64,000 nucleotides of DNA from an uncultured delta proteobacterium (GCA_963731595.1 CAVSWE010000003.1:172948-236947), one strand, 5' to 3'. Counted from the stretch's first letter, positions 4,316-59,389 are shown. Made by a program: numbers and translations. The notes: a model not told the origin generated them from the sequence alone.

Positions 4316-4347
4316 GCAAGAACCCCGCGAAGGTGTCGCGCTCCATA

Positions 4348-37369: not shown

Positions 37370-37376
37370 GGTCGCC

Positions 37377-37976: not shown

Positions 37977-38575
37977 CGAAAGGGGTCATCCTCGACCGCG
38001 ACGGTACGCTCGTGGACGTCGTGCGCGACGAGGAGACCGGCGTCATCACGACGGCGTTTCATCCGTCGCAGCTTCGCCTCCTGCCGGGCGCGCTCGAAGG
38101 ACTGCAGAAGCTCCAATCCGCTGGGTTCGTGCTCGCCATCGCGAGCAATCAACCAGGGCCGGCGAAGGGCCATTTCTCTCGCGACGCCGTGACGAAGACC
38201 AACGCCGCGCTCGTCGCGATGCTCGCGCGCGAAAACGTGCAGATTGCAAAGGTCGTCGTGTGCATGCACCACCCGATCGGCGGCCCGGGCGGCGACGCGT
38301 CGCTCGTGGGGCCGTGCGCGTGCCGCAAGCCCAAGCCCGGCATGCTCCTCGAGATCGCGGAGGCTCTCGAGCTCGACCTCGAGCGTTCGTGGATCGTGGG
38401 CGACACGTCCTCGGACGTCGCGGCGGGTCGCGCCGCCGGGGTCCGCTCTGCGCTCGTGTTCGACCGGAACCGTTGCGAGCTCTGCCCGCTCCGCGGCGGC
38501 CCAGGCGTTTTGCCCGACGCGCAAGGCGCGACGGTGGCGGCGGTCGCGGACGAAATCACTCGTTTGGCGTGCTAG
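37973..38575 (+). CDS. gmhB: D-glycero-D-manno-heptose 1,7-bisphosphate phosphatase (GmhB, HAD family).
   Basis: HAD motif ILDRDGTL, GmhB zinc motif CMHHP...CACRKPKPGML, and WIVGDTSSD. The GTG overlaps the gmhA stop. Confidence 0.85.
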   Translation: MTKGVILDRDGTLVDVVRDEETGVITTAFHPSQLRLLPGALEGLQKLQSAGFVLAIASNQPGPAKGHFSRDAVTKTNAALVAMLARENVQIAKVVVCMHHPIGGPGGDASLVGPCACRKPKPGMLLEIAEALELDLERSWIVGDTSSDVAAGRAAGVRSALVFDRNRCELCPLRGGPGVLPDAQGATVAAVADEITRLAC

Positions 38576-38586
38576 TGTCCGCGCGC

Positions 38587-40767
38587 ATGAGCGGAAAACG
38601 CCGCGTCGAGCGCGTGGCCGATGCCCTCGCGTTTGCGGCGACGGCCTGGTTCGCGTTCACGGCATTTTGGGGAATCAACGCTCAACCCCATGCGGGCCAC
38701 ATCGGCTCCGCGGGCGCCGCGATCGCCATGACCGCGGAGAATTCGATCCGCTGGCACTCGTGGTATCCGCTCTCCGATTATTACGGCACGACCAACCCGT
38801 TTCCTCAGGGTGCGTACTGCCATCACCCGTTCGGCTGTTTCTGGATCAGTGAGATCGCGGTTCGGCTCTTCGGCCACGCCGACTTCGTCGCGAATCTTCC
38901 GTCCGCGATCATGAGCGCGCTCACGCCGCCGCTGCTTTATTGGACCGGCAAGCGCGCGTGGGGCCCGCTCCCCGGCGCCGCCGCGGCGATCGCGTTCGTG
39001 ACGCTGCCCATCACCGTGGGTTTTTCGATCTTCCACAACCTGGAAGTGATGACGATCTTCGGCGCCGTCCTGTTCTTCTGGGGCCACGGCAAGTTCCTCG
39101 AGACGCGGCGCGGGCGCGATCTCGCGTGGTCCCTCGTCGGCGCCTCGATTGCCGTGTCCGGCGACTGGGTCGGGTACGTCATCCTGGCCGGCCTCCTCGG
39201 CTGGGCTTTCCTTCGAGCGTTCGTCCTGCCGGCGTGGATGACGCCGCCTGTTCGCGTGGCGCAGTACCACCGCTGGTGGGCGCTCTCGGTCGCGCTCGCG
39301 GTGGGCTCGCTCGTGCTCTGGATCGCGATGTTCCAGCACGCCGACAAGCTCACCGACTGGATTGCCTCGGCGCAGGGCAGAAGCGGCGGCGCGGACGAGA
39401 AGCTCTCGGCCGTGTTGGAGGCGCGAAAGACCTGGATCGATTTCTCCTTCACGCCGTACGCGATCCTCGTCGGCAAGCTCGCCGCGCCGCTCGCCATCGT
39501 CCGTCTCGTCTACTTTCGCCGCGACGCCGAGATGTACTCGGTGGCGATGCTGTTCGGCGCGACGGTGCAGTATCTCGTCTTCAAGCAGGGCGCGGACATT
39601 CACATTTTCTGGCCGCACTATTTCGGCGCTTATTACGCGTACGCGTGCGCGCAGCTCGTTGCCACGGCCGGTGGGGTGACGCGCTGGGCCGCCCGGCGCT
39701 TCGCGCCGAATGCGGTTCGAAGCCCTGAGGTCGCCGTCTCGCTCTGCGCGCTCTTCCTCGCGACCGCGCCGCAGACACCCGACGCCGTCCGATCCCTGCG
39801 CGTGTGGCGCGAGTCGGCCGGGAGGTACGACGAGAAGGGTGTGCTCTATCGTAGCCACGCCGACCTCCTCTTCGTCGTGAAGAAGGTGCTCCGGCCCGAG
39901 ATCCATCGAGGCGAAAAGCTCGGCGTCGAGCCCGGAGTCAGCTGGGGCTGGGAGCACCAATGGGCGCTCGAAGGCATGGCCGAGACGGCGTCGTCGCCGT
40001 CGAACGCCCATCCCTATTGGCTCGCGCGCGCCAGCGCGTTGGGCGCCGATCAGCTCAAGACGTTGGCGCAGAAATACCATCTTCGCATCTACGGCGACGC
40101 GGTGATCGTGAAGCGCGGAGAACGTCAAGCGCCGGTCGACGCGTACGCGATCGAGGAGCGCGAGCCCGGCTGGATCGGCTGGATGTTCACGTACAACACC
40201 GAGCCGGTTCGCACGATTTCGGAGCAGCCCGACCCATTCGAGACGTGGGAGTGGCGGTATCATCTCGGCCAGCCGGCGGAGCGGCCGACGCAGAAGCCTC
40301 ACACGCTCGAACAGATCCGCATCGGTTACAACGCCGCGGTCGCGAGTCACGACGACCCCGCCGCTGCCAAGCTCCTCGAGGCCCTCCGCGACGGCATCGA
40401 TCGCACTGTCGAGGCTCATTTCGACGAGGGCAACGAGCTGATGGGCGTCCGCTTGGTGCACGGCGTCCGCCCGCGGATCGAGGTTTATTTTCAGGCGGGC
40501 GGCCCCACGGCCTCCGACACCAAGCTCACGATTCGCTCGGACGTCGTAGCCAAAGCCAAGCTCAGCCTGATTCCCCCGAGCCCGGTCGAGTGCGATCTCG
40601 CGTATCCACCCTCGCTGTCGACCAAGCTCTGGCAGCGTGGTTTCGTGTACAAGTTCGTAGCGCCGCTCCACCACCGCATCGGAGAGGAGCGGTATTGGGC
40701 TGCATGGGCCGGCGGACCACGTCGTCTGCACGGAGACCCGAAGATCGATTTGGCTTACGTGGAATGA
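38587..40767 (+). CDS. Large polytopic membrane protein with a C-terminal ~350 aa soluble domain (GT-C-like architecture; putative lipid-linked-sugar glycosyltransferase).
   Basis: About 11 N-terminal TM helices, with acidic/aromatic residues in the first loop, then a hydrophilic domain (726 aa). No exact family assignable by eye. Confidence 0.6.
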   Translation: MSGKRRVERVADALAFAATAWFAFTAFWGINAQPHAGHIGSAGAAIAMTAENSIRWHSWYPLSDYYGTTNPFPQGAYCHHPFGCFWISEIAVRLFGHADFVANLPSAIMSALTPPLLYWTGKRAWGPLPGAAAAIAFVTLPITVGFSIFHNLEVMTIFGAVLFFWGHGKFLETRRGRDLAWSLVGASIAVSGDWVGYVILAGLLGWAFLRAFVLPAWMTPPVRVAQYHRWWALSVALAVGSLVLWIAMFQHADKLTDWIASAQGRSGGADEKLSAVLEARKTWIDFSFTPYAILVGKLAAPLAIVRLVYFRRDAEMYSVAMLFGATVQYLVFKQGADIHIFWPHYFGAYYAYACAQLVATAGGVTRWAARRFAPNAVRSPEVAVSLCALFLATAPQTPDAVRSLRVWRESAGRYDEKGVLYRSHADLLFVVKKVLRPEIHRGEKLGVEPGVSWGWEHQWALEGMAETASSPSNAHPYWLARASALGADQLKTLAQKYHLRIYGDAVIVKRGERQAPVDAYAIEEREPGWIGWMFTYNTEPVRTISEQPDPFETWEWRYHLGQPAERPTQKPHTLEQIRIGYNAAVASHDDPAAAKLLEALRDGIDRTVEAHFDEGNELMGVRLVHGVRPRIEVYFQAGGPTASDTKLTIRSDVVAKAKLSLIPPSPVECDLAYPPSLSTKLWQRGFVYKFVAPLHHRIGEERYWAAWAGGPRRLHGDPKIDLAYVE

Positions 40768-41408
40768 ACCAACACATGGACCGAGAGAAGTCGTTCGGAC
40801 AGTACGCCGAGCCCAACGCCGTCGACCGCTTCGGCATCGCGCTCTCGCGCGCTCGAATTCGCCGCTCCGTCGGCAAGTTCGCTGGCAAGCGCATCGCGGA
40901 CATCGGCTGCGGTTTCCACGCGCTCGTCGTGCGCGGGTTCCTCGGCGAGGTCGAGTCGGCGACGCTGATCGACCTCGCGATCTCCGACGAGCTCAAGGCG
41001 CACACGCGTGTTCACGCCATCGAAGGCGAGCTGCCCGGCGTGCTCGAGCAGATCCCCGACGGGAGCCTCGACGTCGTCGTCTGCAACAACGTGCTCGAGC
41101 ACCTGTGGGACCCCGCCGTTGCCGTACGACATTTCCGCCGCATGCTGCGACCCGAAGGGGTCGCGCTGCTCAATGTCCCCTCGTGGCGCGGGAAGTACTT
41201 CCTCGAGCTCGCTTCATTCAAGTTGAACGTGGTCCCGCGGATCGAGATCGACGACCACAAGCACTATTACTCGCCGCACGAGCTCTGGACGCTGCTCGTG
41301 CAGGGCGGTTTTCGCCCGAGCGAGATCAAGAGCTGCCACACGCACAAGTTCGGCCTGAACACGTACGCCGAGTGCCGGGCGAGCGCGGACGTCGCGGCCA
41401 AGCCGTAG
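40764..41408 (+). CDS. Class I SAM-dependent methyltransferase (214 aa).
   Basis: IADIGCGFHALV (motif I) and VLEHLWDP...LRPEGVALLNVP. The ATG overlaps the upstream stop (ATGA). Confidence 0.75.
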   Translation: MNQHMDREKSFGQYAEPNAVDRFGIALSRARIRRSVGKFAGKRIADIGCGFHALVVRGFLGEVESATLIDLAISDELKAHTRVHAIEGELPGVLEQIPDGSLDVVVCNNVLEHLWDPAVAVRHFRRMLRPEGVALLNVPSWRGKYFLELASFKLNVVPRIEIDDHKHYYSPHELWTLLVQGGFRPSEIKSCHTHKFGLNTYAECRASADVAAKP

Positions 41409-41416
41409 CCCGTGCT

Positions 41417-42550
41417 ATGGAGCGGCCGATGAACGCCTTGACACGCTTGTTGCGCGCGTCGTGGGGACGGCCACGGCACGTGCTCGGCATCGGAAACCTC
41501 GACTGGTCCCAGCTCGACGGCGTCACGGCCGTCGACGACGAGAAGCTCGCCGCGACGAAGGGGAACTTCGACGCTGCGGTCGTCGAGCTGCCTGCGTCCG
41601 ACGAGGGCGCGCTCGAGCGACTGCGCGCGTGCGTCGGCCGTCTCTCGGACGGAGGACACGTGCTTCTTCCGGTCGCGCACCCGGTGTCATTCGCCGAAGG
41701 ACAACGCTTGCGCCGCGCCTTCGACCGCGCGCGCGAGCGAACGGTTCGCCTCGCCGAGGCCGCGGGCCTCGAGGTCTTGCGCGTCGACGTGCGATTGCAC
41801 GCCGCGGTCGTCGTCGCCCGCACCGCGCCGAAGCCCGGCAAGCTCTCGCTCACCGTCGGCATGCTCACGTTGAACGAGCAGCAAAGCGTCGAGCGGATGA
41901 TGGACGAGATCCATCAATACGCGCCCGACGCGAGCATCCTGCTCGTGGACAGCTCGAGCGACGAGACGCCGAACCTCGCGCGCGCCAAAGGCGCCGAGGT
42001 GATTCGGCAACTGCCGGCGCGCGGCCACGGTCCGGCGATGGAGCAGCTCATGTACGCGGCCGCCGATCGCAGCGACGCGCTCGTCTACATCGACTGCGAC
42101 TTCACCTACCCGACCGAATACATCCCGCGCATCCGCGAGCTCCTCGAGCAAGGCGCCGACGTCGTCAACGCGACGCGCACGCACAAATACCCGAAGGCGA
42201 TGCCCGTGCCGAACTTCATCGCGAACCGCGTGTTCGCCGCGACGGCTCAGATCGTCCACGGGATCCCAACGACCGACTTGCACAGCGGCCTGCGCGGGTA
42301 TCGCTCCTCGGTGATCAGAGCGTTTTCGTTCAGCGGGGAACAGGACGCGCTGCCGGTGACGACCTTGATCCTGCCGGCGCGTTCGAGCTACCGCGTCGTC
42401 GACCTTCCCATCCCCTACGCCGAGCGGGAGGGCATCTCCAAGCTGGCGAAGTTTCGGGGCACCGCGTGGACGTTCGCGCGCGTCGCAACGAGCCTCGGTC
42501 ACGGCCGGCGCGTGCGCCGCGGGCGCAACTACTCACACGTTGGACGCTGA
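41417..42550 (+). CDS. GT2-family glycosyltransferase (DPM1/polyprenol-phosphate sugar synthase-like) with a ~130 aa N-terminal extension.
   Basis: LTVGMLTLNEQQSV...ILLVDSSSDETPNLA...DCDFTYP (GT2 DxD region). Confidence 0.75.
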   Translation: MERPMNALTRLLRASWGRPRHVLGIGNLDWSQLDGVTAVDDEKLAATKGNFDAAVVELPASDEGALERLRACVGRLSDGGHVLLPVAHPVSFAEGQRLRRAFDRARERTVRLAEAAGLEVLRVDVRLHAAVVVARTAPKPGKLSLTVGMLTLNEQQSVERMMDEIHQYAPDASILLVDSSSDETPNLARAKGAEVIRQLPARGHGPAMEQLMYAAADRSDALVYIDCDFTYPTEYIPRIRELLEQGADVVNATRTHKYPKAMPVPNFIANRVFAATAQIVHGIPTTDLHSGLRGYRSSVIRAFSFSGEQDALPVTTLILPARSSYRVVDLPIPYAEREGISKLAKFRGTAWTFARVATSLGHGRRVRRGRNYSHVGR

Positions 42551-43489
42551 CCCGAAGATCTCGCCGGCGATTTCACGCACCGCGCGCTCGACGGCTTGAT
42601 CGGAGGTGTTGTGCATCCGAAAGCCGAGGGCCGCCAGCTTGTCGGGTCGCAGTCGCGAGCGGGCGACGTCGCCCGGCCACCCCTGGGCGCTCGTGCCGAA
42701 GGCGATGCGGGCGCCCGGGTTGGGCGAGCTGGCGACGCACAGCTCGGCGATGCGACGCACGGAGGTCGTGTCCGGCGGCGCGAGGTTGTAGATCGCGGGG
42801 TTCTCGCCGCTCGCGTGGTCGAGGACGAAGAGGATCGCCTCGGTGCAGTCGCTGACGTGGAGGTACGGCTTGCTCTGCCGGCCGTCGCCGAGGACGTCGA
42901 GGCAATCGGGCTTCTGCTGGAGCTTCTTGCAGAAGTCGACGATCGCGCCGTGCGTTCCCCGCGCACCCACCACGTTTCCGAATCGGCAGATGTAAGATCC
43001 GAGGCCGAAGCACTCCGAATAGGCCGCGATGAGCGCCTCGCCCGCGAACTTGCTCGCCCCGTAGAGCGAGATCGGCAAATGTCCGAGATCGGCCTCGCCG
43101 CACGGCTGATCGGTGTTGCCGTACACGGTTCCGCTCGAGGAGAAGACGAACTTGCCGACGTGCGTGAGCCGCGCAGCCTCGAGCGAGTTGTACGTCGCGA
43201 TGGTGCCTTGCTCGAGGTCGAGGCGCGTTCGCTCGAGCCCCCAGCGGGCCTCGGGGTTCGCCGCGAGGTGAAATACGACGTCATGGCCGGCCATCGCCGC
43301 CTGGAGCGCGTCGAGCTCGAGCGCGTCGCCGACGACCAACTTGGCCGCGCCGCTCGCGAGGTGTGCCGCTACGAATTCCCTCTTGCCGATCGACAGATTG
43401 TCGAAGATCGTCACCGGGCCGCGGGCGACGAGCCGGTCGACCAAGTGGCTTCCGATGAACCCTGCACCGCCGACGACGAACGACCGCAT
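42533..43489 (-). CDS. NAD-dependent epimerase/dehydratase (extended SDR; nucleotide-sugar epimerase-like).
   Basis: MRSFVVGGAGFIGSHLV Rossmann motif and catalytic YGASK (YxxxK). Confidence 0.8.
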   Translation of the reverse strand: MRSFVVGGAGFIGSHLVDRLVARGPVTIFDNLSIGKREFVAAHLASGAAKLVVGDALELDALQAAMAGHDVVFHLAANPEARWGLERTRLDLEQGTIATYNSLEAARLTHVGKFVFSSSGTVYGNTDQPCGEADLGHLPISLYGASKFAGEALIAAYSECFGLGSYICRFGNVVGARGTHGAIVDFCKKLQQKPDCLDVLGDGRQSKPYLHVSDCTEAILFVLDHASGENPAIYNLAPPDTTSVRRIAELCVASSPNPGARIAFGTSAQGWPGDVARSRLRPDKLAALGFRMHNTSDQAVERAVREIAGEIFGSASNV

Positions 43490-44366
43490 GGATGAGGGAG
43501 CGGAACATAGTGCGAAACCGGGCGCCTTGCGAGCGTTCGTCGCCGGCCTCCGTGAGGTCATGTTGCTGCGTGGGGCGCACGCCGTCGTCGCGGGGTACGG
43601 CCCCGCGACGCTGGCCGCGATCCGCGAGCACAAACGTGCCGCCTCCGCGCGACTGCGCGCGTCGCGCCGACTCTCGAACCCTCGCCTCGCCGTCGAGCTG
43701 CTCGCCGCGGCGCGCACGCACGCGGTGCTCGCGGCGGCCGCGGCAGGGCGCGCGGCGCCGCCGCCGATGGACGCCGTCGGTCTCGACGCGCTGCCCTTCG
43801 CCGATCTCGAGACCCTGCGCGATCGACTCGAGCTCGAGATCGGCGAGATCCTGGCTTCGATCGAGTCGCGCACGCCGACGGAGCTCCGTGGCCTCGTCTA
43901 CGGCCGGTTCGCGGCGATCGCCCTGGCCGTCTGCGCGGCCCTCTGGGCCGAGAGCAAGCCGTACCGAATCCACGACGTCGCGCTCGGCAAGCCGGTGACC
44001 ACGAGCCCGCTGCTCGCTCCTCCGGCGACGCCCGAGGGGATCGTGGACGGCCGCACGCGCGGCACGTTCGGGCTGCAGACGACCCGAGGGCGCGCGCCTT
44101 TCGTGACCATCGACCTCGAGCGCACGTACCTGATTCGTCGCATCGCGATCTACAACCGCGCCGACGGCTGGTACGACGAGATCCTGCCGCTGTCCCTCGA
44201 GGTCTCCGCCGACGGCATCACCTTCGAGCACGTCGCGACGCGGACCGAGCACTTCACCGTGTGGGACTTGCGCTTCGACGCCGGGCTCAACGCGCGCTGG
44301 GTCCGCGTCTCCAAGGACAACGGCTACATCGCCCTGAACGAAATCGAAGTCTATGCCCGCAACTGA
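43488..44366 (+). CDS. Type II membrane-anchored F5/8 type C (discoidin/CBM32-like) domain protein.
   Basis: About 150 aa cytoplasmic N-region, TM RFAAIALAVCAALWA, and a C-terminal discoidin signature ...FVTIDLERTYLIRRIAIYNRADGWYD...SADGITFEHV...WVRVSKDNGYIALNEIEVYA. The ATG forms a CATG overlap with the divergent epimerase start, so the start is uncertain. Confidence 0.65.
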   Translation: MDEGAEHSAKPGALRAFVAGLREVMLLRGAHAVVAGYGPATLAAIREHKRAASARLRASRRLSNPRLAVELLAAARTHAVLAAAAAGRAAPPPMDAVGLDALPFADLETLRDRLELEIGEILASIESRTPTELRGLVYGRFAAIALAVCAALWAESKPYRIHDVALGKPVTTSPLLAPPATPEGIVDGRTRGTFGLQTTRGRAPFVTIDLERTYLIRRIAIYNRADGWYDEILPLSLEVSADGITFEHVATRTEHFTVWDLRFDAGLNARWVRVSKDNGYIALNEIEVYARN

Positions 44367-46194
44367 CGCTCCCAAGCGCGACTGGTCGCGAATCGGCCGT
44401 ATCGCGCTCGAAGTGTTCACCTGGCTCCTCGCGCTCGGGATGCTGGCGCTCGTCGTCGCGCCCGTCTTCATCCACACCGACACGTACGGAGTCCACGACT
44501 GGGACCAGATGGAAGCGCACCGCTACCTCGCGGTGAAGACCATCAAGCGCTACCACCAGTTCCCGTTCTGGAACCCGTATAGCTGCGGCGGCCACACGTG
44601 GTGGGGCGGGCTCGAGAGCGGCACGTCGCTCGTGTCTCCTTGGCTGCCGATCTACCTGCTCGCGCCGTTCACCTGGGCGCTGCGGCTCGAGATCGTCGGC
44701 GCGGCGCTCTTGTCGGTGGTCGGTACGTGGCTCTTCGCCGGTCGCTTCACGCGGAGCCCCGGGCTGCGCCTGCTCGCGATTGCGGCGTTCGCGCTCGACG
44801 GCCGATTCACGCTCCAAACCTCGGTCGGCCACACGTGGCACCTCTATTACGCTTGGACGCCATGGGCGCTCTACTTCCTCGACCGCGCGATCGCGATCGC
44901 GCCCGGCGCGTCGCGCAAGACCGCTTTTCGCGACGTCGTGTTCCTCGGCGCGACGCTCGCGATGATGGTCTACACGGGCGGCATCTACCCGCTGCCCCAG
45001 ACGATCGTCATGATCGCGATCTATTCGATCACGTGCGCCGTCGTGACTCGCTCGACCCGGCCGGTGACGCTGGCGGTCGCCGGCGGGCTCTTGTCGTTCG
45101 CCTTCTCGGCGCCGCGGCTCCTGCCGATCATCGAGATGCTCCGGCACTACCCGCGCCTCGTCGACTCTCCCGAGTCGATGGATCTCGGCGCGCTCATCGG
45201 GGTCTTCACGGCGAAGGAGAGCGAGCCTCGCCCCTCGCTCGGCCCGTGGGGCTGGCACGAGTTCGGGATCTACGTCGGGTGGGTGCCGTTCGCGATGATG
45301 CTGTTCGCGCTCGCGGTCGGCGGCCGCGCGCGGGAGCGCGCGCTGCGTCTCGCAGGCGCCTTCGCGCTCGTCTGCGGGCTCGGGCGCTTCCACAAGTACT
45401 CGCCGTGGGGGCTCATGCATGACCACCTGCCGATCTTCGAGTCGCAGCACGTGCCCTCGCGCTGGCTCTACCCCGCCGCGCTGATGCTCGTCGTCGCGGC
45501 CGTCGCGGTCGTGGAGCGCTGGCTCGCGCACCGGAGGCGGCGAGGCTTGCTCGAGGTCGCGGTGATGTCACTCGCCGCGTACGTCGCGCTCGACGTGGGC
45601 CTCGAGGCGCAGCGGCCGCTGGTCGGCGCGTTCGCCTACCATTTGCGCCCGCTCGTCGACAGCGTCGGCGAATTTCATCAAGAGCGCACGGCGCCGCCCG
45701 AGCTTCGTTACGACGGCTCCGATTGGGCACCCCCGAACATGCCGTCGATGATCGCGAACGTCGGCGTGCTCGCGTGCGGCACCTTTCCCGGCTTCGACTC
45801 CTATTACCGCGACGCTCACGACCACTCGCCGGGCATGGGGGCAAAGGCCCGTGGAGACGCTGACTATCGCGGCGAGGTCTACTTCCCGTCGGGTCACGGC
45901 CGAGCTTCGATCACGTCGTGGTCTCCGAACGCGGTCACCGTCTCGTACAGCGACGCGCAGCCCGGCGATCTGCTCGTCTTGAACGAGAACTGGGACTCCG
46001 GCTGGCATGCGAGCGGAGGCCGCGTCGAGGCGCACGCCGACGCGATCGGCGTACGCGTCGGCGCGAGCGAAGGCGTCGTCCGCTTCCGCTATACGCCGCC
46101 TTTCTTCTGGCTCGGCTGTTGGATCTTCGCCTCGACGGTCGCGGGCCTGGTGCTCTTGAAACGGCGAAACGTGGTAAAACGAGCGGAAACTTAG
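44353..46194 (+). CDS. Polytopic membrane protein (613 aa), GT-C-like; overlaps the stop of the upstream discoidin gene.
   Basis: At least 11 TM helices, a first loop HTDTYGVHDWDQMEAHRY rich in acidic residues, and a C-terminal ~180 aa soluble domain. Confidence 0.6.
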   Translation: MPATDAPKRDWSRIGRIALEVFTWLLALGMLALVVAPVFIHTDTYGVHDWDQMEAHRYLAVKTIKRYHQFPFWNPYSCGGHTWWGGLESGTSLVSPWLPIYLLAPFTWALRLEIVGAALLSVVGTWLFAGRFTRSPGLRLLAIAAFALDGRFTLQTSVGHTWHLYYAWTPWALYFLDRAIAIAPGASRKTAFRDVVFLGATLAMMVYTGGIYPLPQTIVMIAIYSITCAVVTRSTRPVTLAVAGGLLSFAFSAPRLLPIIEMLRHYPRLVDSPESMDLGALIGVFTAKESEPRPSLGPWGWHEFGIYVGWVPFAMMLFALAVGGRARERALRLAGAFALVCGLGRFHKYSPWGLMHDHLPIFESQHVPSRWLYPAALMLVVAAVAVVERWLAHRRRRGLLEVAVMSLAAYVALDVGLEAQRPLVGAFAYHLRPLVDSVGEFHQERTAPPELRYDGSDWAPPNMPSMIANVGVLACGTFPGFDSYYRDAHDHSPGMGAKARGDADYRGEVYFPSGHGRASITSWSPNAVTVSYSDAQPGDLLVLNENWDSGWHASGGRVEAHADAIGVRVGASEGVVRFRYTPPFFWLGCWIFASTVAGLVLLKRRNVVKRAET

Positions 46195-46208
46195 GAGGGA
46201 ACTCCCCA

Positions 46209-46865
46209 ATGGCGATCTTCATCGACAGCTCCGACCCGAAGGAAATCAAAGACCTCTTCGCGTGGGGCGTGCTCTCCGGCGTCACGACGAACCCCCTCAT
46301 CATCTCGAAGGAGAGGCCCGACGCGGACCTCGGCGAGATTGTCCGCGAGATCCTCGCGGTGAGCTGGGGCGACGTTTCGGTCGAGCTCACGACCGAGACC
46401 GAAAGCGAGATGCTCGCGGAAGCGTCCGGGTATCACGCGTGGGATCCGCAGCGCATCACCATCAAGGTGCCGATGAGCGAGGCGGGCCTTCGCGTGCTCC
46501 ACCAGCTCTCGAAGAAGGGCGTGAAGACGAACGTCACGTGCCTCATGTCGATGAACCAGGCTTATCTAGCTGCGCTCGCAGGCGCGACCTACGTCAGCAT
46601 CTTCTCCGGTCGCGTCCGCGACATGGGCTACGACGTGAAGCCGATCATCGCCGCGACCCGCAACGTGCTCGACCGCGAGAATCTGCCGTCGAAGATCATC
46701 GTCGGCTCGATGCGTCACATGATGGACGTGAACGAGGCGCTCGAAGCCGGCGCTCACGTGCCCACGATCACGCCGACCATCTTGCGCAAGATGGTCTGGA
46801 ATCCGCGGACGATCGAGACCATCAACGAGTTCAACACCGCGTGGAGAAACCGCGGCAAAAAGTAG
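46209..46865 (+). CDS. Transaldolase/fructose-6-phosphate aldolase family protein (TalC/FSA-like, 218 aa).
   Basis: GVTTNPLII motif and a KVP Schiff-base lysine region. A strong GGAGGG RBS sits 8-9 nt upstream. Confidence 0.85.
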   Translation: MAIFIDSSDPKEIKDLFAWGVLSGVTTNPLIISKERPDADLGEIVREILAVSWGDVSVELTTETESEMLAEASGYHAWDPQRITIKVPMSEAGLRVLHQLSKKGVKTNVTCLMSMNQAYLAALAGATYVSIFSGRVRDMGYDVKPIIAATRNVLDRENLPSKIIVGSMRHMMDVNEALEAGAHVPTITPTILRKMVWNPRTIETINEFNTAWRNRGKK

Positions 46866-46880
46866 GCTCGCGGTCGAGCG

Positions 46881-47867
46881 ATGTCCAAGCGCGCGCTGAT
46901 CACCGGAATCACGGGTCAAGATGGCTCGTACCTCGCCGAGCTACTGCTCGAGAAAGGCTACGAGGTGCACGGCCTCGTGCGTCGTTCCAGCTCGCTCAAC
47001 CGAAGCCGCATCGACCACATCTTCAACGCCGATCTCTCGCACCGGCGACACTTGCACTATGGCGATCTCACCGACGGCTCCTCCGTAAACCGCTTGCTCC
47101 GCGCGATCCGGCCGGACGAGATCTACAACCTCGGCGCGCAGAGCCACGTCAAGGTGAGCTTCGAGATCCCCGAGTACACCGCCGAGACGGCCGGGCTCGG
47201 CGCGCTTCGTTTCCTCGAGGGCATTCGCGAGACGGATCTCGTCACGCGATTTTACCAGGCGGGCTCGTCCGAGATGTTCGGCTCCGCGGCGGCGCCGCAG
47301 TCCGAGCTCACGCCGTTCCACCCGCGATCGCCCTACGCCGCAGCGAAGGTGTACGCGCACACGATCGCGGTGAACTACCGCGAAGCGTACGGGATGTTCG
47401 TCTGCAACGGCATCCTCTTCAACCACGAGTCCCCGCGGCGCGGGGAGAACTTCGTGACGCGCAAGATCACGCGCGGCGTCGCGGCGATCAAGCTCGGCCA
47501 GCAGAAGCAGCTCGCGCTCGGCAACCTCGACGCGCAGCGCGATTGGGGCTACGCGAAGGACTACGTCGTCGCGATGTGGCAGATGCTCCAGTGCGACCAG
47601 CCCGACGACTACGTCGTCGCTACGGGCGAGACCCACACCGTCCGCGAGTTCTGCGAGGTTGCGTTCGCTCACGCCGGGCTCGACTACCGCAAGCACGTCG
47701 TCATCGACCCGAGCTACTTCCGCCCGACCGAGGTGGACGTGCTGCAGGGCGACGCCCGCAAAGCTCACGCCGCGTTCGGGTGGAAGCCCACCGTGAAGTT
47801 CGAGGAGCTCGCGAAGCTCATGGTCGACGCCGACCTCGACGCTCTCCGCAGCGGGCACGCCCAATGA
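46881..47867 (+). CDS. gmd: GDP-mannose 4,6-dehydratase family (Gmd/DmhA-like).
   Basis: [36 protein letters not shown] catalytic motif, 328 aa. Confidence 0.9.
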
Positions 47868-49105
47868 GCTACCGCGGGATCGCGGAGTGCCGCATCTGCG
47901 GCGGCTCGAACCTCGTCACGGTCCTCGATCTCGGCCAGCAAGCGCTGACGGGCGTCTTCCCGGACGCGAAGAACCCCGAGGTCGAAGTCGCGCCGCTCGA
48001 CCTCGTGAAATGCGACGGGCCTGGCTCGTGCGGGCTCGTGCAGCTGCGGCACACGTGCGAGCCGTCGCAAATGTATGGAGCGAACTACGGCTACCGCTCG
48101 GGGCTCAATCTCTCCATGGTCGAGCACTTGCGCGCCAAGGTCGCGCGCCTCGTCGAGCTCGCGCCGCTGGCCCCTGGCGACGTCGTGCTCGACATCGGCA
48201 GCAACGACGGGACGACGCTCTCGTCGTATCCGAGCACGGCGAAGCTCGTCGGCATCGACCCCACGGCGGCGAAATTCCGCCAGTATTACCCCGAGCACGT
48301 CACCGTCGTGCCGGACTTCTTCTCGTCCGCTCGCTTCCTCGATGCGAGCGGCGGCGCGCGCGCGAAGATCGTCACGTCGATCGCGATGTTCTACGACCTC
48401 GAGCGCCCGATGGACTTCATGCGCGACGTGTTTGCCTCGCTCGCCGACGACGGCGTCTGGCACTTCGAGCAGAGCTATCTCCCGTCGATGCTCGACGCGC
48501 TCTCGTACGACACGATCTGCCACGAGCACCTCGAGTACTACGCGCTCGCGCAGATCCAGTGGATGGCCGAGCGCGTCGGTTTTCGGATCGTCGACGTCGA
48601 GCTCAACGACGTCAACGGCGGCTCGTTCGCGATCACCGCGCGGAAAGGTCGCAACGGCGCCGCTTCGCCGCGCGTCGCGGAGCTCGCGGCCGCGGAGAGG
48701 ATGCGCGCGCTCGACACCCTCGCGCCCTACGAGAAATTCGCGTCCGACGTCGCGCACCACCGCGACGAGCTGCGCGCCCTCCTCGGGCGTCTGCGCGACG
48801 ACGGCAAGCGCGTCTTCGGCCTCGGCGCGTCGACGAAGGGCAACGTCCTCTTGCAGTATTGCGGCTTCGGCGTGCGCGAGCTCGCATGCATCGCCGAGGT
48901 CAACCCCGACAAGTTCGGCCACGTCACCCCCGGCACGAACATCCCGATCGTATCCGAGGCGGACGCGCTCGCGCGCGCCCCGGATTATTTCATGGCGCTC
49001 CCGTGGCATTTTCGGAGCACGCTGCTCCGCGCGCACGCGAGCTTCCTCGAGCGCGGCGGCAAGATGATCTTTCCGTTGCCGCGTCTCGAGATCGTCGGGG
49101 CATGA
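47864..49105 (+). CDS. Sugar C-methyltransferase (TylCIII/NovU-like: zinc ribbon, SAM methyltransferase domain, C-methyltransferase C-terminal domain).
   Basis: N-terminal CRICGG...C...C zinc-binding region. [10 protein letters not shown] (motif I). A C-terminal domain typical of NDP-hexose 3-C-methyltransferases. ATGA overlaps at both ends. Confidence 0.8.
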
Positions 49106-49993
49106 AGCGAGCGGCCGTCATCGGCTGCGCGGGGCAAGACGGACGCCTCCTCCGCGAGCGCCTCTCGAAGGAAGCGGAGGTCGTCGGCGTGGATCTCGGC
49201 GACGTCGACCTCGCGGAATCCGGCGGCGACGACCGCGTGGATCGAGCGCATCGCGCCGGACGAGCTCTACTACCTGGCCGCGCACCATCACTCGGCCGAG
49301 GCTCTTCCGGACGACGCGAGCGAGCTCCGCGCGTGCACCGCCGTACACGTGACGTCCTGGGTGAACGTGCTCGACGCGCTCCGGCGGCACGCGCCCGCGT
49401 GCCGCGCGTTCTACGCCGGCTCGTCGCACATGTTCGGCCGTCCCGCGGTTTCGCCTCAAAACGAGACGACGCCGTTCGCACCACGAAGCCCGTACGCGAT
49501 CACGAAGGTCGCGGGCGCGCACGTCGCCGCGCTCTACCGTGACCGCGGGATGCACGTTTCGGTCGGCATCCTCTACAATCACGAGTCGGCGCTTCGCGGC
49601 CCGCAGTTCGTCTCGCAACGAATCGTCCGCGGTGCGAAGCGCGCGGCAAACGATCGCACCTTCGAGCTCGTGCTCGGCGACCTGTCCGCCGTAGTCGACT
49701 GGGGCTGGGCGCCCGACTATGTCGACGCGATGGTTCGCATTCTCGCGCAGCCGGCTCCGGACGATTACGTCGTCGCCACCGGGACGCCGCACTCCGTCCA
49801 GGACTTCGTGGCGAGCGCGTTCGCCTGCGCGGGCGTCGACTGGCGTTCGCGGGTGGTGGAGGATCCGACCATCGTCAAGACGAAGGCGCTCCCACTCGTC
49901 GGCGACTCGACGAAGCTCCGCGCACGTACCGCCTGGGCGCCTACGGTGACGTTCGAGGAAATGGTGAAGCAGCTCGTGCAAGGTGGGCAGTGA
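49105..49993 (+). CDS. GDP-4-keto-6-deoxy-sugar reductase/dehydratase family (Rmd/DmhB-like), with an apparent +1 frame shift near 49235.
   Basis: N-terminal [17 protein letters not shown] in frame 1. The rest is in frame 2 (...PDELYYLAAHHHSAE...SPYAITKVAG...). Confidence 0.75.
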
Positions 49994-50964
49994 CGTGAAC
50001 CTCGATCGGGTGGCGAGCGTGGCGACCGAGTGGCTCCTCCAGAAGGACGCGGAGACACGTGCGAGGGCGCGCGAGAGCAATCCGGAGCACGCGCGCTTGG
50101 TCCAGCTATGTCTCCGTGGCGCTGACGAACGACTCGACCTCCTCGGCGACGTCACGGAGCCCGTAGTCGCGCTCGCGTCATCCGCCGCGTTGCGCGAGGC
50201 GACGCTGCTGCTGCTCGAAGCGACGGGTTCGCGGAGCGGGCCGCTCGACGCCGTCGCAGAGCTCCGTCGCACCTGCGAAGAGCTCGCCGTTCCCGCGGGG
50301 ACATGCAGCGCAGCAGCGCGCTTGCTCGTCGACGACCCGCTCGCGCTCTCGGGTCTGGCGTCAGCGGATTTCGGTCCGTTCTGCGCTCGCCCTCGAGCAC
50401 GTCGCACGCGCGCTCCGCGCGCACCTCGACGGCCGAACCGCGTCGCGCATCGTGCGTTCGCGGCGCTTGCGCGTGGCGCTCCTCGCGGCGCTGGCCCTGT
50501 ACGGCGTCTTCGCGCTCGGGCTCGCCGTGTTCGGGCGCAAGAACATCGCACGCGGCAAGCCCGTCCTCATGAGCAGCGTCGACGGGGCCAGTGCCCCACC
50601 GCAGATGCTCGTCGACGGCGTTCGGTCCGCCGACACCAAGCCGGGCTCCCCGAAGCCGGACGTCGTCTACACGCGCCACGAGGCGCATCCCTGGGCGCTC
50701 GTCGATCTCGGGCGCGAATACAACATCCGGGAGGTGCGCCTGTACAATCGCGACGACGGAGGCTTCGACGACGGCCTCCCGTACATCGTCGAGTTCTCGT
50801 TCGACGGCCACACGTTCTGGGAAGTCGGCCGCTGCGAGACGCACTTCGGGAGTTGGTGGATCGACCCGCCCTGCCGTGTGCCGTGCGACCGGCGCACCAC
50901 GCGCTTCGTCCGCGTCAGCGCGACGGGTTACCTCGCGCTCAGCGAGATCGAGGTGTTCCCTTGA
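49983..50964 (+). CDS. Second membrane-anchored F5/8 type C (discoidin) domain protein, paralog of 43488..44366, with an apparent +1 frame shift near 50395.
   Basis: GTG start overlapping the upstream stop. N-terminal ~135 aa in frame 0. TM LRVALLAALALYGVFALGLAVFG plus discoidin ...WALVDLGREYNIREVRLYNRDDGG...FSFDGHTFWEV...RFVRVSATGYLALSEIEVFP in frame 1. Confidence 0.55.
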
Positions 50965-52715
50965 ACCGCCTCCGGCTCGCCGAGTGGCAGCGTCCTTTGC
51001 TCGCCATCTTTCTGACGCTGCTCACGCTGCGCATCACGGCCTATTTCTTCGCGATCCTGAACGACAACTTTCTCCACGCCGGCCTCGAGTACGACGAGAG
51101 CTATTTCGTGTGGTGCGGGTGGATGATCAACAAGGGCTTCGCGCCGTACCGCGACTTCCTCGAATTCAAGCCGCCGATGACGTTCATCACGCACGCCATG
51201 GCGCTGAAGCTCTTCGGGTTTCATGAGTTCGGCTACCGGAAGTTCTTCGCCTATTTTCCGCTGGGGTCCCTCCTCGCGCTGCAGCTCGCGATGTTGTCGC
51301 GCCGAATCGACCGGTGGCTCGCGCTCGCCCTCACGATCGCGTTCATCCAGATCTGGCTGAACCCCACCTTTCACGACGTGGCGCTCTCGGACTCGGAGTC
51401 GATCGGGCTCGCGTACTACCTGCTCGGGGTCGCCTGCCTGTTCGCGCGCACGCGCTTTCGAACGACGCTCCAGTGGTTGGGTGGGGCGATGTTCGCCTGC
51501 TCGATCTTTTCGAAGGAGCCGTTCTTGCCGTGCGTGGGCATGACGTGGATCAGCCTTTTCCTGCTGGGGGACGAGCCCGGGACGTTCGCCGTGCGTGCGC
51601 GCCGCTACGCGGGCCGGACGATCGGCGGCGGGCTCGTCGTGCTCGCCCTGCTGTGCGCTTACATGATCCCGAGCGGCGCGATGCGCGCGTACCTCGACGT
51701 CCTGCACCGGTACTTCCACTTCTACCGCGACGTGAAGGAGTCGTATTGCGTCGTCCTCGGGCGCTTTCATCCGACGGTGCCGTTGAACGACCTCCACATG
51801 CAGTGGCGGCAGGCGCGCGCCTCGTTCGCGAACTCGACGAACCTCGGCTTCCTCGCGCCGTTCGCCGCAGCCTCGATCGTGTTCATCTGGAAGCGCTCGC
51901 GCGTCCTGTTCGCGACCGTGCTCATCGGCGTAGGTTCGGCGCTCTGGGCCGTGACGGCGAGCAACTGCCAGTGGGCGCACTACTACACGATGACGATGAG
52001 CGGTCTCTTCTTCGCGCTCGTCGTGGGCCTCGATTCGCTCACGCCGCATTTCCGCGCGATGAGCCGCGCGTCGCGGGTGTTTCTCTCGATCGCCATGCTC
52101 GGCACCGTGCTCCTGCACGACTGGGTTCGCTTCGACGCCGAACGCGACAAGTACGGCACGCGGACGGCGCAGGAGTTCAAATCGAAGGAGCCCGTCCCCG
52201 GCGTGTTCGAGGCCGTGCAGCGGTACACGACGCCGGCGGAACGCATCGTCACGACCGGTGCGCCGAGCCTGTACATGCAAGTCGATCGGATCGACGGCAT
52301 GCGCGAATCCACCACCGACGACGAGGTGCTCGGCTTCTACAGTGGCGCCACGGACGAGGAAAAGCTCAGCAGCGTTAGAGCCGAGCTACTTCGTAGCCGC
52401 CCCAAGCTGATCATCCTCGACTCGTCGCCTTCCGGCGACGGGCGCAAGCGCCGCTGGCGCGCCGCGCTGTGGGACCCCTTCTTGCACGACTTCCATTATC
52501 GCGAGATCAAACCTCGCATTTACGTCCGACCGGATCTGATCAGTCCGGTCGGCGCGCGACGACGACGGCCTGCACGAAGAAATCCTTCGGCCCGAAGTCG
52601 TACGAGACGAGCTCGAGGCCGCCCGAGGCGAGGAGCTTCGAAGCCTCGCTCTTGGAGTGCACCAGCGACGGCTCCGGCGGGTGCAGTCGGACGTTCTTCG
52701 CGAGCACGTCGTTGA
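50961..52715 (+). CDS. GT-C-fold glycosyltransferase (ArnT/PMT-like, GT39/GT83 family); 3' end uncertain.
   Basis: TTG start overlapping the discoidin stop. First periplasmic loop LEYDESYFVWCGWMINKGFAPYRDFLEFKPPMTFI (DE motif and EFKPP, as in ArnT/PMT). More than 10 TM helices. The last ~60 aa are Arg-rich, so the true stop may lie nearer 52530. Confidence 0.7.
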   Translation: MNRLRLAEWQRPLLAIFLTLLTLRITAYFFAILNDNFLHAGLEYDESYFVWCGWMINKGFAPYRDFLEFKPPMTFITHAMALKLFGFHEFGYRKFFAYFPLGSLLALQLAMLSRRIDRWLALALTIAFIQIWLNPTFHDVALSDSESIGLAYYLLGVACLFARTRFRTTLQWLGGAMFACSIFSKEPFLPCVGMTWISLFLLGDEPGTFAVRARRYAGRTIGGGLVVLALLCAYMIPSGAMRAYLDVLHRYFHFYRDVKESYCVVLGRFHPTVPLNDLHMQWRQARASFANSTNLGFLAPFAAASIVFIWKRSRVLFATVLIGVGSALWAVTASNCQWAHYYTMTMSGLFFALVVGLDSLTPHFRAMSRASRVFLSIAMLGTVLLHDWVRFDAERDKYGTRTAQEFKSKEPVPGVFEAVQRYTTPAERIVTTGAPSLYMQVDRIDGMRESTTDDEVLGFYSGATDEEKLSSVRAELLRSRPKLIILDSSPSGDGRKRRWRAALWDPFLHDFHYREIKPRIYVRPDLISPVGARRRRPARRNPSARSRTRRARGRPRRGASKPRSWSAPATAPAGAVGRSSRARR

Positions 52716-54009
52716 GCATCCAGTGAGCGAGGCCGAGCACCTTGACGCTCGTGGCCTGCGCGTGCGGCCAGAAGACGACCATCTTGCCGCCCGGCTTGAG
52801 CACGCGCCGGATCTCGCCGAACGCGCGACCCAGCTCCTCGTGCGTGAAGTGCTCGACCACGCCGAGGTTGTATGCGCCGTCGAAGGTGGCCTCCTCGAAG
52901 GGCAGGTCGAAGATGCTCGCGTGCGTCACCTGCGCCTCCGGGTTCTCGCGCAGATACGTGCGGAGAGCCGACTCGGAGATGTCCACGGCGACGATGTCCG
53001 CGCGATCGTGCAGGTCCACGTCGACCTGCCCGCTGCCGCAGCCCGCGTGGAGAAGGCGCGAGCCCTGGCCAAACTCGCGCTCGATGGTTTCCTGCAGGCG
53101 ACGCTTGATGACCGTGTTGCGGTAGAGCGTGGCGATGACGTCGTACGTGGCCGCGGTCGCGCGCTCTTTCTTGTCCCAGTATTCGTTCCAGTTCTGCACG
53201 TCGACGAGCTCGGAATTTATCTCCGGAGCGCCCGCCAGCCTGAAGCGAGACGGCGACGTCACGTTGGTGAGCCAGAGCGAGCCGAGCGTCTTCACGCTGC
53301 GCGCGACCTCGACCGCGCTCATCTTGGAGCTGCCGTACGTTCGCGCCGGCAGCGCGAGCGGCACCTCGGCGATCGAGAAGCCGTTGTTGTGGAGGATGAA
53401 CAGGCTCTCGAAGAAGAACGCGTACCCGCGCGACCGCACGAGATCGAACACCGCCCGCGGGATCGTCTCGAGGTTGTAGACGCGGAACGCGCCCGTCGCG
53501 TCCTGCGGCATCCCGAGGACGTTCTTCGTGAGTGCGTGGCCGAGCGTCGTCAGTGATTTGCGGAAGAGCGTCCAGCCCGGCAAGCTGTTCTCGGCGAGGT
53601 AACGCGAGCCGACGACGGCGTCCGAGGTCTCTGCGCGCGCGAGAAACATCGGGATGGCGTCGGGCGAGTGCGTGAAGTCGCCGTCGAGCGTGACCAGCCG
53701 ATGGTAACCGTGATCGTACGCGTAAGCGATGCCGGCGACGTGGGCGCTGCCGATGCCGCTCTTCGCCGGGCGATGAATGACCGACAGCCGCGCGTGCTTG
53801 CGCGCGAGCTGGTCGAGGAGCTCCCCGGTCCCGTCCGGCGACGAGTCATCCATGAAGACGATGTCGGCATCGAGGCCGAGCGCGAAGAGCTGATTGCACA
53901 TCGGCTCCACGTTGTTCCGCTCGTTGTAAGTGGGAATGAAGATGAGTGTTTTCTTCGCGCTGACCAAGCCGGACCTCGCCCGAAGGTGGAGCTTACGACG
54001 ACCGCACAA
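52540..54009 (-). CDS. Bifunctional GT2 (DPM1-like polyprenol-phosphate glycosyltransferase) and class I SAM methyltransferase fusion.
   Basis: N-terminus LIFIPTYNERNNV...VFMDDSSPDGT...TLDGDFTHSP (GT2). C-terminus LLHAGCGSGQVDV...VLKPGGKMVVFWP (methyltransferase). Confidence 0.8.
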   Translation of the reverse strand: MCGRRKLHLRARSGLVSAKKTLIFIPTYNERNNVEPMCNQLFALGLDADIVFMDDSSPDGTGELLDQLARKHARLSVIHRPAKSGIGSAHVAGIAYAYDHGYHRLVTLDGDFTHSPDAIPMFLARAETSDAVVGSRYLAENSLPGWTLFRKSLTTLGHALTKNVLGMPQDATGAFRVYNLETIPRAVFDLVRSRGYAFFFESLFILHNNGFSIAEVPLALPARTYGSSKMSAVEVARSVKTLGSLWLTNVTSPSRFRLAGAPEINSELVDVQNWNEYWDKKERATAATYDVIATLYRNTVIKRRLQETIEREFGQGSRLLHAGCGSGQVDVDLHDRADIVAVDISESALRTYLRENPEAQVTHASIFDLPFEEATFDGAYNLGVVEHFTHEELGRAFGEIRRVLKPGGKMVVFWPHAQATSVKVLGLAHWMLNDVLAKNVRLHPPEPSLVHSKSEASKLLASGGLELVSYDFGPKDFFVQAVVVARRPD

Positions 54010-54031: not shown

Positions 54032-54562
54032 TCAGCAAAAGACGTGGATCGTCACCGTGAAATCGCCGCTGTTGTCCCCGAAGGCCTGCCTCTGATCGTT
54101 GAATCCAAGGAAGAGGCGGCCGCTCGTCGACGCAATCTCGTCGTACGACGTCCCCACGAAGCCTGGACCGTCGCCGCTCGTGCCCTCGGCGACCGGAACG
54201 CCCGTGTCGAGGGCTGCCGTGCCGCCGACCTTGCCGATGAGGCTGACGATGACGGCGTCGGGCAGCACCGCCGTCGGGAAGAATCGTTGGCCGTCGAAAT
54301 TGCCCCCGTTCGCGTCGCAGGACTGACTGCCCATGTCGCCGTAACGCACCGTACCGGACGCCGCGAGGACGAGCCGCTCTCCCGCGACCACGTCGAGGCC
54401 GGTGTCGACCCAGGGCGCCTCCGACGACACTTGCAGCGTGATCTCGCGCGTCTCGCACGCGCCGTCGGCGCCAGCCTCCGACGACAGGCGACCGCCGAGC
54501 TCGGTTCGGGCGCCGCACGCCGACGCAGCGGCGAAGAACGCGATGGTCAGTGCGCGCAGCAT
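54032..54562 (-). CDS. Small secreted lipoprotein (176 aa), hypothetical.
   Basis: MLRALTIAFFAAASACGARTEL signal/lipobox; Gly/Asp-rich beta-type composition. Confidence 0.55.
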   Translation of the reverse strand: MLRALTIAFFAAASACGARTELGGRLSSEAGADGACETREITLQVSSEAPWVDTGLDVVAGERLVLAASGTVRYGDMGSQSCDANGGNFDGQRFFPTAVLPDAVIVSLIGKVGGTAALDTGVPVAEGTSGDGPGFVGTSYDEIASTSGRLFLGFNDQRQAFGDNSGDFTVTIHVFC

Positions 54563-59264: not shown

Positions 59265-59363
59265 GCGCCGGAACTTACGGTCGCGTCGCGTGTCGATAAC
59301 GCAGAACCCACCTTGCAGCGATCTCGTCTTGCCCCGGCGCGCAAATCTAGAAGCGGCAGCGTA

Positions 59364-59389
59364 GAACGCGCGGCCGGGCCGCCGACGTG
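59364..59389 (+). promoter_or_regulatory. Candidate ECF-type promoter (GAAC-N16-GACGT) upstream of the sigma/anti-sigma pair.
   Basis: GAAC at about 59364, a 16-nt spacer, then GACGT. It resembles AAC-N16-CGT autoregulated ECF promoters but lies ~155 nt from the start, so it is weak. Confidence 0.2.

Follow-up and report, generated by a model that had tools for sequence, protein, structure and literature searches.

The 64,000-nucleotide stretch of DNA analyzed here (the window; GCA_963731595.1 CAVSWE010000003.1:172948-236947) derives from an uncultured delta proteobacterium and has a G+C content of ~69%. It contains two gene pairs, in each of which the gene for a membrane-anchored protein with a C-terminal discoidin (F5/8 type C) domain overlaps the gene for a polytopic membrane protein with the predicted fold of a GT-C glycosyltransferase. 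We designate the encoded proteins discoidin-1 and GT-C-1 (pair 1) and discoidin-2 and GT-C-2 (pair 2). The nearest named relatives of GT-C-1, the product of 44353..46194, are found in metagenome-assembled genomes (MAGs) of Polyangiaceae (Myxococcota). The pairs occupy the following positions:

43488..46194, plus strand: discoidin-1 and GT-C-1
49995..52539, plus strand: discoidin-2 and GT-C-2

An earlier reading of the sequence alone (the original prediction) had assigned a discoidin domain to the first protein of each pair, and searches with hidden Markov models (HMMs) bear this out. The Pfam model F5_F8_type_C (PF00754; cut-off 28.2 bits) matches discoidin-1 with 36.6 bits (5.8e-9) and discoidin-2 with 29.7 bits (7.7e-7, on 50452..50961); PF22633 (F5_F8_type_C_2) also exceeds its cut-off for both proteins (2.3e-8 for discoidin-1). 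Pairwise alignment of the two discoidin domains gives 39% identity over 140 amino acids (E=3e-20), from which we conclude that they are paralogous, as had been proposed. Their matches to sequences in the PDB are weak and fall on CBM32-type modules (2j22, 4lpl, and 2j7m; E=0.015–0.16). Discoidin-1 consists of an N-terminal helical region of ~140 amino acids, a single transmembrane (TM) helix, and the C-terminal F5/8 type C domain. The architecture that the two proteins were said to share holds for this layout; their N-terminal regions show no pairwise similarity and align only through a 24-member family alignment, in which the conserved columns are E23, A30, L72, A75, R128, and R140. This N-terminal domain has no match in Pfam or the PDB. 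Conservation within the family is concentrated in motifs of the lectin fold, NRxDGxFD and ALNEIEV.

The topology of the discoidin proteins was assessed in 65 family members. The 15 residues flanking the TM helix contain a mean of 4.1 Lys/Arg residues before the helix versus 2.4 after it, a modest signal that favors a cytoplasmic N-terminus and a lectin domain at the periplasmic surface of the membrane. The discoidin domain, which opens with a conserved G/H-K-x-V, begins a median of 8 residues past the TM helix, and a tether this short would place the domain directly at the outer surface of the membrane.

The open reading frame (ORF) of discoidin-1 ends at 44366 and can be read from ATG 43488 (292 amino acids) or TTG 43527 (279 amino acids); the gene call in the source record is 268 amino acids (P0237). 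Because the family alignment starts at M..L.AF.AGLRE, TTG 43527 is the likelier start. GT-C-1 is a polytopic protein of 613 amino acids (44353..46194, plus strand), whose ATG at 44353 lies within the discoidin-1 gene, 14 nucleotides before its stop. On the opposite side, ATG 43488 and the ATG of a divergent epimerase gene share the palindrome CATG (43487..43490), so that nothing lies between the two genes; if translation begins at TTG 43527, they are 37 nucleotides apart. Since the gap is at most 37 nucleotides, the promoters must fall within coding sequence.

The gene for discoidin-2 had been taken to span 49983..50964. At 982 nucleotides, this interval cannot be read in a single frame in the window: frame 0 holds the N-terminal part (49995..~50371), and frame 1 holds the TM helix and discoidin domain (~50373..50964), with an ORF that begins only at GTG 50452. 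Frame 0 stays open to 52715 and joins the frame of GT-C-2, generating a spurious ORF of 910 amino acids. Discoidin-2 ends in ALSEIEVFP at 50964, and its TGA stop overlaps TTG 50961 of GT-C-2 as TTGA (4 nucleotides). The stop/start overlap predicted for each pair is thus present in both. In an alignment with the syntenic relative L001, the window carries one surplus base near 50373 and a further one near 49217, the latter within the gene for a GMD-like reductase. L004, a separately assembled contig of 3,346 bp (Logan assembly of run ERR11594406), is 99.9% identical to window 49656..53003, the differences being one substitution and the absence of C 50372 and C 52536. Discoidin-2 is intact in L004 (340..1308; 322 amino acids) with a start that corresponds to window GTG 49995, and GT-C-2 comprises 525 amino acids, its TTG overlapped by the discoidin-2 TGA as TTGA. 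The extra C at 50372 is also absent from L001/L002 and L143, and the discoidin-2 orthologues of L002 and L143 occupy a single frame. The corrected discoidin-2 gene spans 49995..50964 and encodes 322 amino acids. The end of GT-C-2 originally placed at 52715 is likewise an artefact, a false extension caused by the extra C at 52536. Its true stop is TGA 52537..52539, which directly abuts a convergent gene for a fusion of a family 2 glycosyltransferase (GT2) with a methyltransferase; the GT-C-2 gene extends over 50961..52539 (525 amino acids).

Searches by tblastn with L001 proteins located frame breaks at 49217, 50372, and 52536 plus at least three in a beta-CASP/metallo-beta-lactamase gene (55200..56606), which amounts to at least six between 49.2 and 56.6 kb versus none in 35.6–49.1 kb. 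Because L004 lacks two of these breaks and the indels cluster locally, we regard them as local assembly errors, and the extra C at 50372 is most likely an error of this kind rather than biology. In practical terms, such single-base errors spoil several gene models in the window. We consider it very improbable that discoidin-2 is truly a pseudogene or subject to programmed frameshifting, leaving pair 1 alone functional. The window sequence does break frame at 50372, and in L001 two Trp codons of the discoidin-2 gene are replaced by TAA. Against this, the gene is intact in the 99.9% identical L004; L002 has TGG at the first TAA site of L001 and ends before the second; G+C by codon position is normal on either side of the break (0.81 and 0.90 at third positions); no slippery motif occurs at the site; and at least five more frame breaks lie nearby, in the GMD-like reductase gene, at the GT-C-2 stop, and in the beta-CASP gene. 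A real or programmed frameshift was rejected on the strength of the independent contig L004 and the local cluster of indels.

At L001 15600..15660, the discoidin-2 orthologue has, in addition to the two TAA codons at sites that are Trp (TGG) in the window, several G-to-A differences. All seven differences between L001 and the 99.9% identical L002 (16447..16487) over 7.4 kb are confined to the final 40 nucleotides of L002. The TAA codons of L001 could reflect a pseudogene in one strain, an error at a contig end, or a local assembly chimera.

Sequence and profile searches of Pfam, NCBIfam, and the PDB returned no match for GT-C-1 or GT-C-2; it was structure prediction that resolved their fold. 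AlphaFold models were obtained with high confidence for GT-C-1 (predicted local distance difference test score 90.1, predicted template modeling score 0.91; alignment of 46 homologues) and GT-C-2 (91.3 and 0.92, respectively; alignment of 49 homologues). When the models were compared with the PDB using Foldseek, all matches with a probability of 1.0 were GT-C enzymes: STT3, AftD, AglB, ArnT, AftA, PglB, and Pmt4 for GT-C-1, and AglB, STT3, ArnT, PglB, DPY19, Pmt4, and EmbC for GT-C-2. These predicted structures support the assignment of both membrane proteins as GT-C fold glycosyltransferases, in agreement with the original prediction. Immediately after TM1 (helix 11–39), GT-C-1 contains invariant D49 and W50 together with nearly invariant H48 and D51; the corresponding position of GT-C-2 (TM1, helix 2–39) is occupied by invariant D45-E46 (YDESYF). 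These acidic motifs sit where the catalytic residues of GT-C enzymes lie and may have a catalytic role. In the GT-C-1 model, a periplasmic beta-rich domain (residues 440–580) precedes a C-terminal TM helix.

The two enzymes differ in their affiliations. GT-C-1 itself does not match YfhO (PF09586), but 12 of its 46 aligned homologues do (best E=4.8e-8), and on this basis we describe GT-C-1 as remotely YfhO-like. For GT-C-2, neither the protein nor its homologues P0226, P0135, and P0127 match the HMM for PMT_2/ArnT-type enzymes (PF13231), and profile searches against PDB sequences gave nothing. Its modeled fold is nearest to that of ArnT; it shares 8–13% identity with solved GT-C enzymes and differs from ArnT (GT83) and PMT/PMT_2 (GT39) in its C-terminal periplasmic alpha/beta domain. 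As far as the model allows, the likeness of GT-C-2 to ArnT lies in the fold only, and its family is without a Pfam model. The repeated lectin-plus-transferase pairing does not extend to kinship of the transferases: paralogy of GT-C-1 and GT-C-2 was rejected (BLASTP E=0.09; hhalign probability 0.9%), and they belong to different GT-C families (family 1 and family 2). Fusion of a GT-C enzyme to a discoidin domain was considered for P0226, a longer homologue of 723 amino acids, and rejected because no discoidin match was found.

Both pairs are conserved neighbors in relatives, as the original prediction requires. The genes of pair 1 also overlap in L001/L002 (86% identity) and L003 (59%; 7-Mb contig), and the pair is further kept in L006, L007, L010, L011, L015, L084, L085, L086, L087, L092, and L139. 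Pair 2 is kept in L004, L001, L143 (85%), and L145 (49%). Stop/start overlaps of 4–14 nucleotides recur in L001, L003, L004, L006, L010, L084, L085, L087, L139, and L143. In the MAG MFD02416.bin.1.98, a distance of 2.4 Mb separates the pairs, pair 1 occurring together with heptose, PMT_2, and GT2 genes and pair 2 together with genes for GDP-mannose 4,6-dehydratase (GMD), a C-methyltransferase, a reductase, and a GT2-methyltransferase. This distance, with each pair accompanied by its own sugar genes, indicates that the pairs are separable modules (modules 1 and 2). When GTDB species genomes were scanned with the family-1 profile, 79 loci emerged, all in Polyangiales, including Sorangium, Polyangium, Chondromyces, and Minicystis. 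A discoidin gene is adjacent at 7 of 76 loci with a GT-C-1 homologue and within 4 kb at 17; it is the closest orthologues that occur in pairs.

The discoidin proteins belong to a larger family of their own. When 1.84 billion representative proteins were searched with the discoidin profile, 405 clusters were obtained at E<=1e-30, and most of the top matches are 280–340 amino acids in length and align from end to end. We examined the neighborhoods of 59 metagenome loci seeded by the discoidin profile, pooled with genome loci from the GTDB scan and annotated with a simple codon-position gene caller and the HMMs of three families. All loci examined that carry the discoidin family come from soil Polyangiales. 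The gene next downstream of the discoidin gene was distributed as follows:

Co-directional family-1 GT-C: 12
Co-directional family-2 GT-C: 4–7
Convergent PMT_2-type GT-C of ~737 amino acids (Pfam 7e-10): 14
Other polytopic protein: 5
Co-directional methyltransferase: 7 loci (L009, L012, L033, L070, L100, L109, and L112)
Convergent GT2-methyltransferase fusion: L119 and its duplicates

The clusters that house the family abound in genes for GT-C enzymes, GT2 polyprenyl-phosphate-sugar synthases, and methyltransferases. In a neighbor-joining tree, the discoidin proteins group by partner (A1, A2, PMT_2, and methyltransferase clades), so that subfamilies have diversified together with partner type. 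The tree fits long-term retention of each arrangement, a pattern that is not independent of the shared ancestry of the clusters. Specific to the family are its residence in GT-C-rich clusters and the arrangement characteristic of each subfamily; at these two levels the association is firm, but it does not amount to a one-to-one pairing throughout. Some loci contain unclassified polytopic proteins of 410–660 amino acids (L144 2039..5995, L012 5762..7579, L140 4417..6018, L141 258..1949, and L124 1238..2473). These match neither Pfam nor the family-1 and family-2 profiles and may represent further unclassified GT-C-like families.

One locus, L096, contains the sole fusion found. Its 553-amino acid product (5055..6716, minus strand) joins an Acyl_transf_3 (AT3) acyltransferase (1.6e-23), an extra TM helix, and a C-terminal discoidin domain of the subfamily studied here (3.2e-8); a discoidin gene of the usual bitopic type (4034..5017) faces it in convergent orientation. 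In OafA-type enzymes, a periplasmic SGNH domain lies C-terminal to the AT3 domain. The discoidin domain of L096 occupies the position of this SGNH domain in AT3 acyltransferases of the OafA/OatA type. The fusion ties the domain to a second class of membrane enzymes that act on extracytoplasmic glycans, although it belongs to a relative rather than the window and its partner is an acyltransferase, not a GT-C.

The two pairs are surrounded by the following genes:

35676..38575, plus strand: four GDP-heptose-type genes (nucleotidyltransferase, GHMP kinase, SIS isomerase, and HAD phosphatase), upstream of module 1; assigned by Pfam on L001/L003 orthologues, with synteny by tblastn
38587..40767, plus strand: PMT_2-type GT-C of ~726 amino acids, the third GT-C of the cluster (Pfam PMT_2 1.8e-9; extent by tblastn with the L001 orthologue)
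40764..41408: methyltransferase
41417..42550, plus strand: GT2 (Pfam Glycos_transf_2; best NCBIfam similarities to dolichyl-phosphate hexose transferase [4e-41], AglJ, ArnC, and PpgS, all under the family cut-offs)
42533..43489, minus strand: epimerase/dehydratase, divergent from discoidin-1
46209..46865: fructose-6-phosphate aldolase/transaldolase
46881..47867, plus strand: GMD (Pfam; bona fide by TIGR01472 gmd, 510 bits versus a cut-off of 415)
47864..49105, plus strand: sugar C-methyltransferase (Pfam Methyltransf_13/14)
49102..49993, plus strand: GMD-like reductase (Pfam), its frame broken by the extra base near 49217
52540..53967, minus strand: GT2-methyltransferase fusion, convergent with and abutting GT-C-2 (Pfam Glycos_transf_2 2.6e-22 and Methyltransf_11)
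58473..59264: BacA/UppP undecaprenyl-pyrophosphate phosphatase (6.8e-70)

The polyprenyl-phosphate-sugar synthase of module 1 is probably the GT2 at 41417..42550. The GT2-methyltransferase fusion resembles PpgS, ArnC, and PgfS in NCBIfam, again under the cut-offs, and its position is kept in L001, L143, and L144; it is probably the corresponding synthase of module 2. Dehydratase, C-methyltransferase, and reductase genes form a trio that accompanies discoidin-2 and GT-C-2 in the window (46881..49993) and in L143 (1911..5028), where the three genes precede the pair; the trio is also present in L144 (10296..13503). The combination of a dehydratase, a C-methyltransferase, and a reductase corresponds to the logic proposed for synthesis of virenose, a 6-deoxy-3-C-methyl hexose (PMC3539893). 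The trio probably supplies module 2 with a GDP-6-deoxy-C-methyl sugar, an identity deduced from the gene set.

We propose, with a probability of about 50%, that the region is part of a Polyangiaceae cluster for the periplasmic assembly of a glycan from lipid-linked sugars, in which two modules of like design each employ a discoidin protein as a subunit of the GT-C enzyme. According to this model, a cytoplasmic GT2 would load a modified sugar from the GDP-sugar pathway onto polyprenyl phosphate. Once flipped, the sugar would be passed by the GT-C to an acceptor at the periplasmic side of the membrane. The bitopic discoidin protein would act as a non-catalytic, trans-encoded lectin subunit that associates with its cognate GT-C and holds the acceptor or the growing product beside the active site. 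A lipid-linked donor is suggested by the context: GT2 genes that resemble dolichyl-phosphate and undecaprenyl-phosphate sugar synthases flank both modules, and BacA is encoded at 58473..59264. The presence of three GT-Cs and several methyltransferases in the cluster suggests that the glycan is built in steps and not merely decorated once.

The components of the model are of known kinds. The C-terminal domain of EmbC (PMC3044687) and AftD (10.1101/2019.12.22.885152) contain an extracytoplasmic beta-sandwich lectin module that is thought to hold the acceptor glycan in a GT-C that uses a lipid-linked sugar; the MIR domains of protein O-mannosyltransferases (PMTs) provide a parallel (PMC7759382). 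The discoidin protein would do in trans what these fused modules do in cis-encoded form, and our predicted models match AftD, AftA, and EmbC, among others, in structure. The window differs from these systems in that the lectin is a separate polypeptide of the discoidin/CBM32 type, with its own TM anchor, a conserved cytoplasmic domain, and putative sugar binding. A second precedent is offered by three-component systems (GtrA/GtrB/GtrC, CsbB/GtcA/YfhO, and Citrobacter GT136), in which a GT2 and a GT-C are co-encoded and act on an extracytoplasmic glycan (PMC11127046, PMC5836110, and PMC8035078). The window likewise combines GT2 genes (41417..42550 and 52540..53967) with GT-C genes (38587..40767, 44353..46194, and 50961..52539); GT-C-1 is remotely YfhO-like, and the flanking GT2s resemble ArnC, PpgS, and dolichyl-phosphate hexose transferases. 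A discoidin partner does not feature in the three-component systems described, and no description of such a partner for any GT-C enzyme was found in the literature searched. It is the separate, membrane-anchored lectin with a conserved cytoplasmic domain that is new. In eukaryotes, malectin is a single-pass membrane-anchored lectin associated with the GT-C-containing oligosaccharyltransferase complex. The resemblance to malectin is one of analogy only, since fold family, organism, and role (N-glycan quality control) all differ.

Several observations weigh against a subunit role. No adjacent discoidin gene was found at 69 of the 76 GT-C-1-homologue loci, including those of cultured Sorangium, Polyangium, Chondromyces, and Minicystis, so the pairing does not extend to the GT-C-1 family as a whole, whose members can evidently work without a discoidin neighbor. 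The GT-C-2 homologue of L144 (56% identity) also lacks one. Many discoidin family members adjoin methyltransferases or converge on a GT-C instead of being coupled to one. Among sizeable downstream neighbors in the metagenome loci alone, polytopic proteins accounted for 22/38 compared with 17/39 among other genes (p=0.26); because this enrichment is not significant, we claim no special adjacency across the family. Neither the genes called in the cluster and its relatives nor their Pfam hits include a small flippase of the GtrA/GtcA type. Finally, the positive-inside signal is modest, and the conserved cytoplasmic domain, which matches nothing known, is left unexplained by the model.

The principal alternative, which we judge rather unlikely, is that the discoidin proteins function in the same glycan pathway without being GT-C subunits. 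Their target would be the polymer once it is complete or exported: they might, for instance, keep it at the membrane, regulate its length or its export, or use the cytoplasmic domain to organize the machinery, and adjacency would reflect no more than operon membership. Such a role accommodates the variety of neighbors (methyltransferase, GT2-methyltransferase fusion, and convergent GT-C), the lack of enrichment over the cluster background, the many GT-C-1 homologues without a discoidin neighbor, and the fusion of the domain to an AT3 acyltransferase rather than a GT-C. It accounts less well for the stop/start overlap with a GT-C that is kept in two subfamilies over 40–60% sequence divergence and for the subfamilies that follow partner type. 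Moreover, a tether of ~8 residues suits lipid-linked substrates over a distal polymer.

The presence of PMT_2-type enzymes in these clusters raises another explanation, namely that the discoidin proteins are acceptor substrates: membrane glycoproteins glycosylated by the adjoining GT-C, comparable to O-mannosylation by PMTs or to the streptococcal Pgf system. PMT_2 enzymes belong to the family of protein O-mannosyltransferases, the GT2-methyltransferase fusion is weakly similar to PgfS, and a target gene beside that of its transferase is a known pattern. We nevertheless regard this as improbable. The discoidin proteins have no long Ser/Thr-rich extracytoplasmic linker, the folded domain starting ~8 residues past the TM helix, and conservation falls on the lectin fold motifs NRxDGxFD and ALNEIEV rather than on a disordered acceptor region.

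The bitopic layout with its conserved cytoplasmic helical domain also recalls anti-sigma factors. The discoidin proteins might be transmembrane sensors in which a periplasmic lectin detects glycan and the cytoplasmic domain controls a regulator, and the window does contain a gene for an extracytoplasmic function (ECF) sigma factor (59543..60190). This explanation seems to us highly unlikely. No sigma factor or other regulator recurs beside family members in the neighborhoods examined, the N-terminal domain has no match to anti-sigma families, and the ECF sigma gene of the window lies ~9 kb away and already has a small TM partner of its own. That gene is situated downstream of BacA, and its stop overlaps an 83-amino acid ORF with a single TM helix (stretch 58473..60438), which is probably its anti-sigma partner.

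Returning to the subunit model, how GT-C enzymes choose their acceptors is poorly understood beyond a few model enzymes. If the model is correct, a separately encoded and swappable lectin subunit would solve this problem in a simple, modular way and could be exploited in glyco-engineering. It is tempting to speculate that the discoidin proteins make up a hitherto unrecognized family of dedicated trans-acting lectin subunits, whose subfamilies would have evolved alongside three or more unrelated GT-C families (YfhO-like, the new ArnT-like, and PMT_2), with one copy fused to AT3; the lectins would set the acceptor specificity of membrane enzymes that modify periplasmic glycans, and the cytoplasmic domain would couple the enzyme to the lipid-sugar synthase in the cytoplasm. 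We hold this wider proposal tentatively, with distinctly less confidence than the model for the window itself. The analysis also delineates a family of bitopic discoidin proteins (~405 representative clusters, E<=1e-30) and two GT-C families without a usable database model, one remotely YfhO-like and one without a Pfam match, in soil Polyangiales, a group in which surface glycans have hardly been studied.

Three further observations concern the surroundings of the cluster and the discoidin profile search. A 398-amino acid protein with 6 TM helices encoded at 33470..34666 has no family match in Pfam or NCBIfam. Just past the GT2-methyltransferase gene, 54032..54562 (minus strand) encodes a 176-amino acid protein with a signal-like N-terminus, whose C-terminus gives a borderline match to PA-IL, the LecA-type galactose lectin (7.9e-5; 23.1 bits versus a cut-off of 22.5). 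Giant proteins of 1,600–5,200 amino acids (P0260, P0323, P0331, P0269, and P0280) contain 9–37 tandem discoidin copies that are near this subfamily, and one of them, P0260 (2865 amino acids), has the highest score in the whole discoidin profile search.

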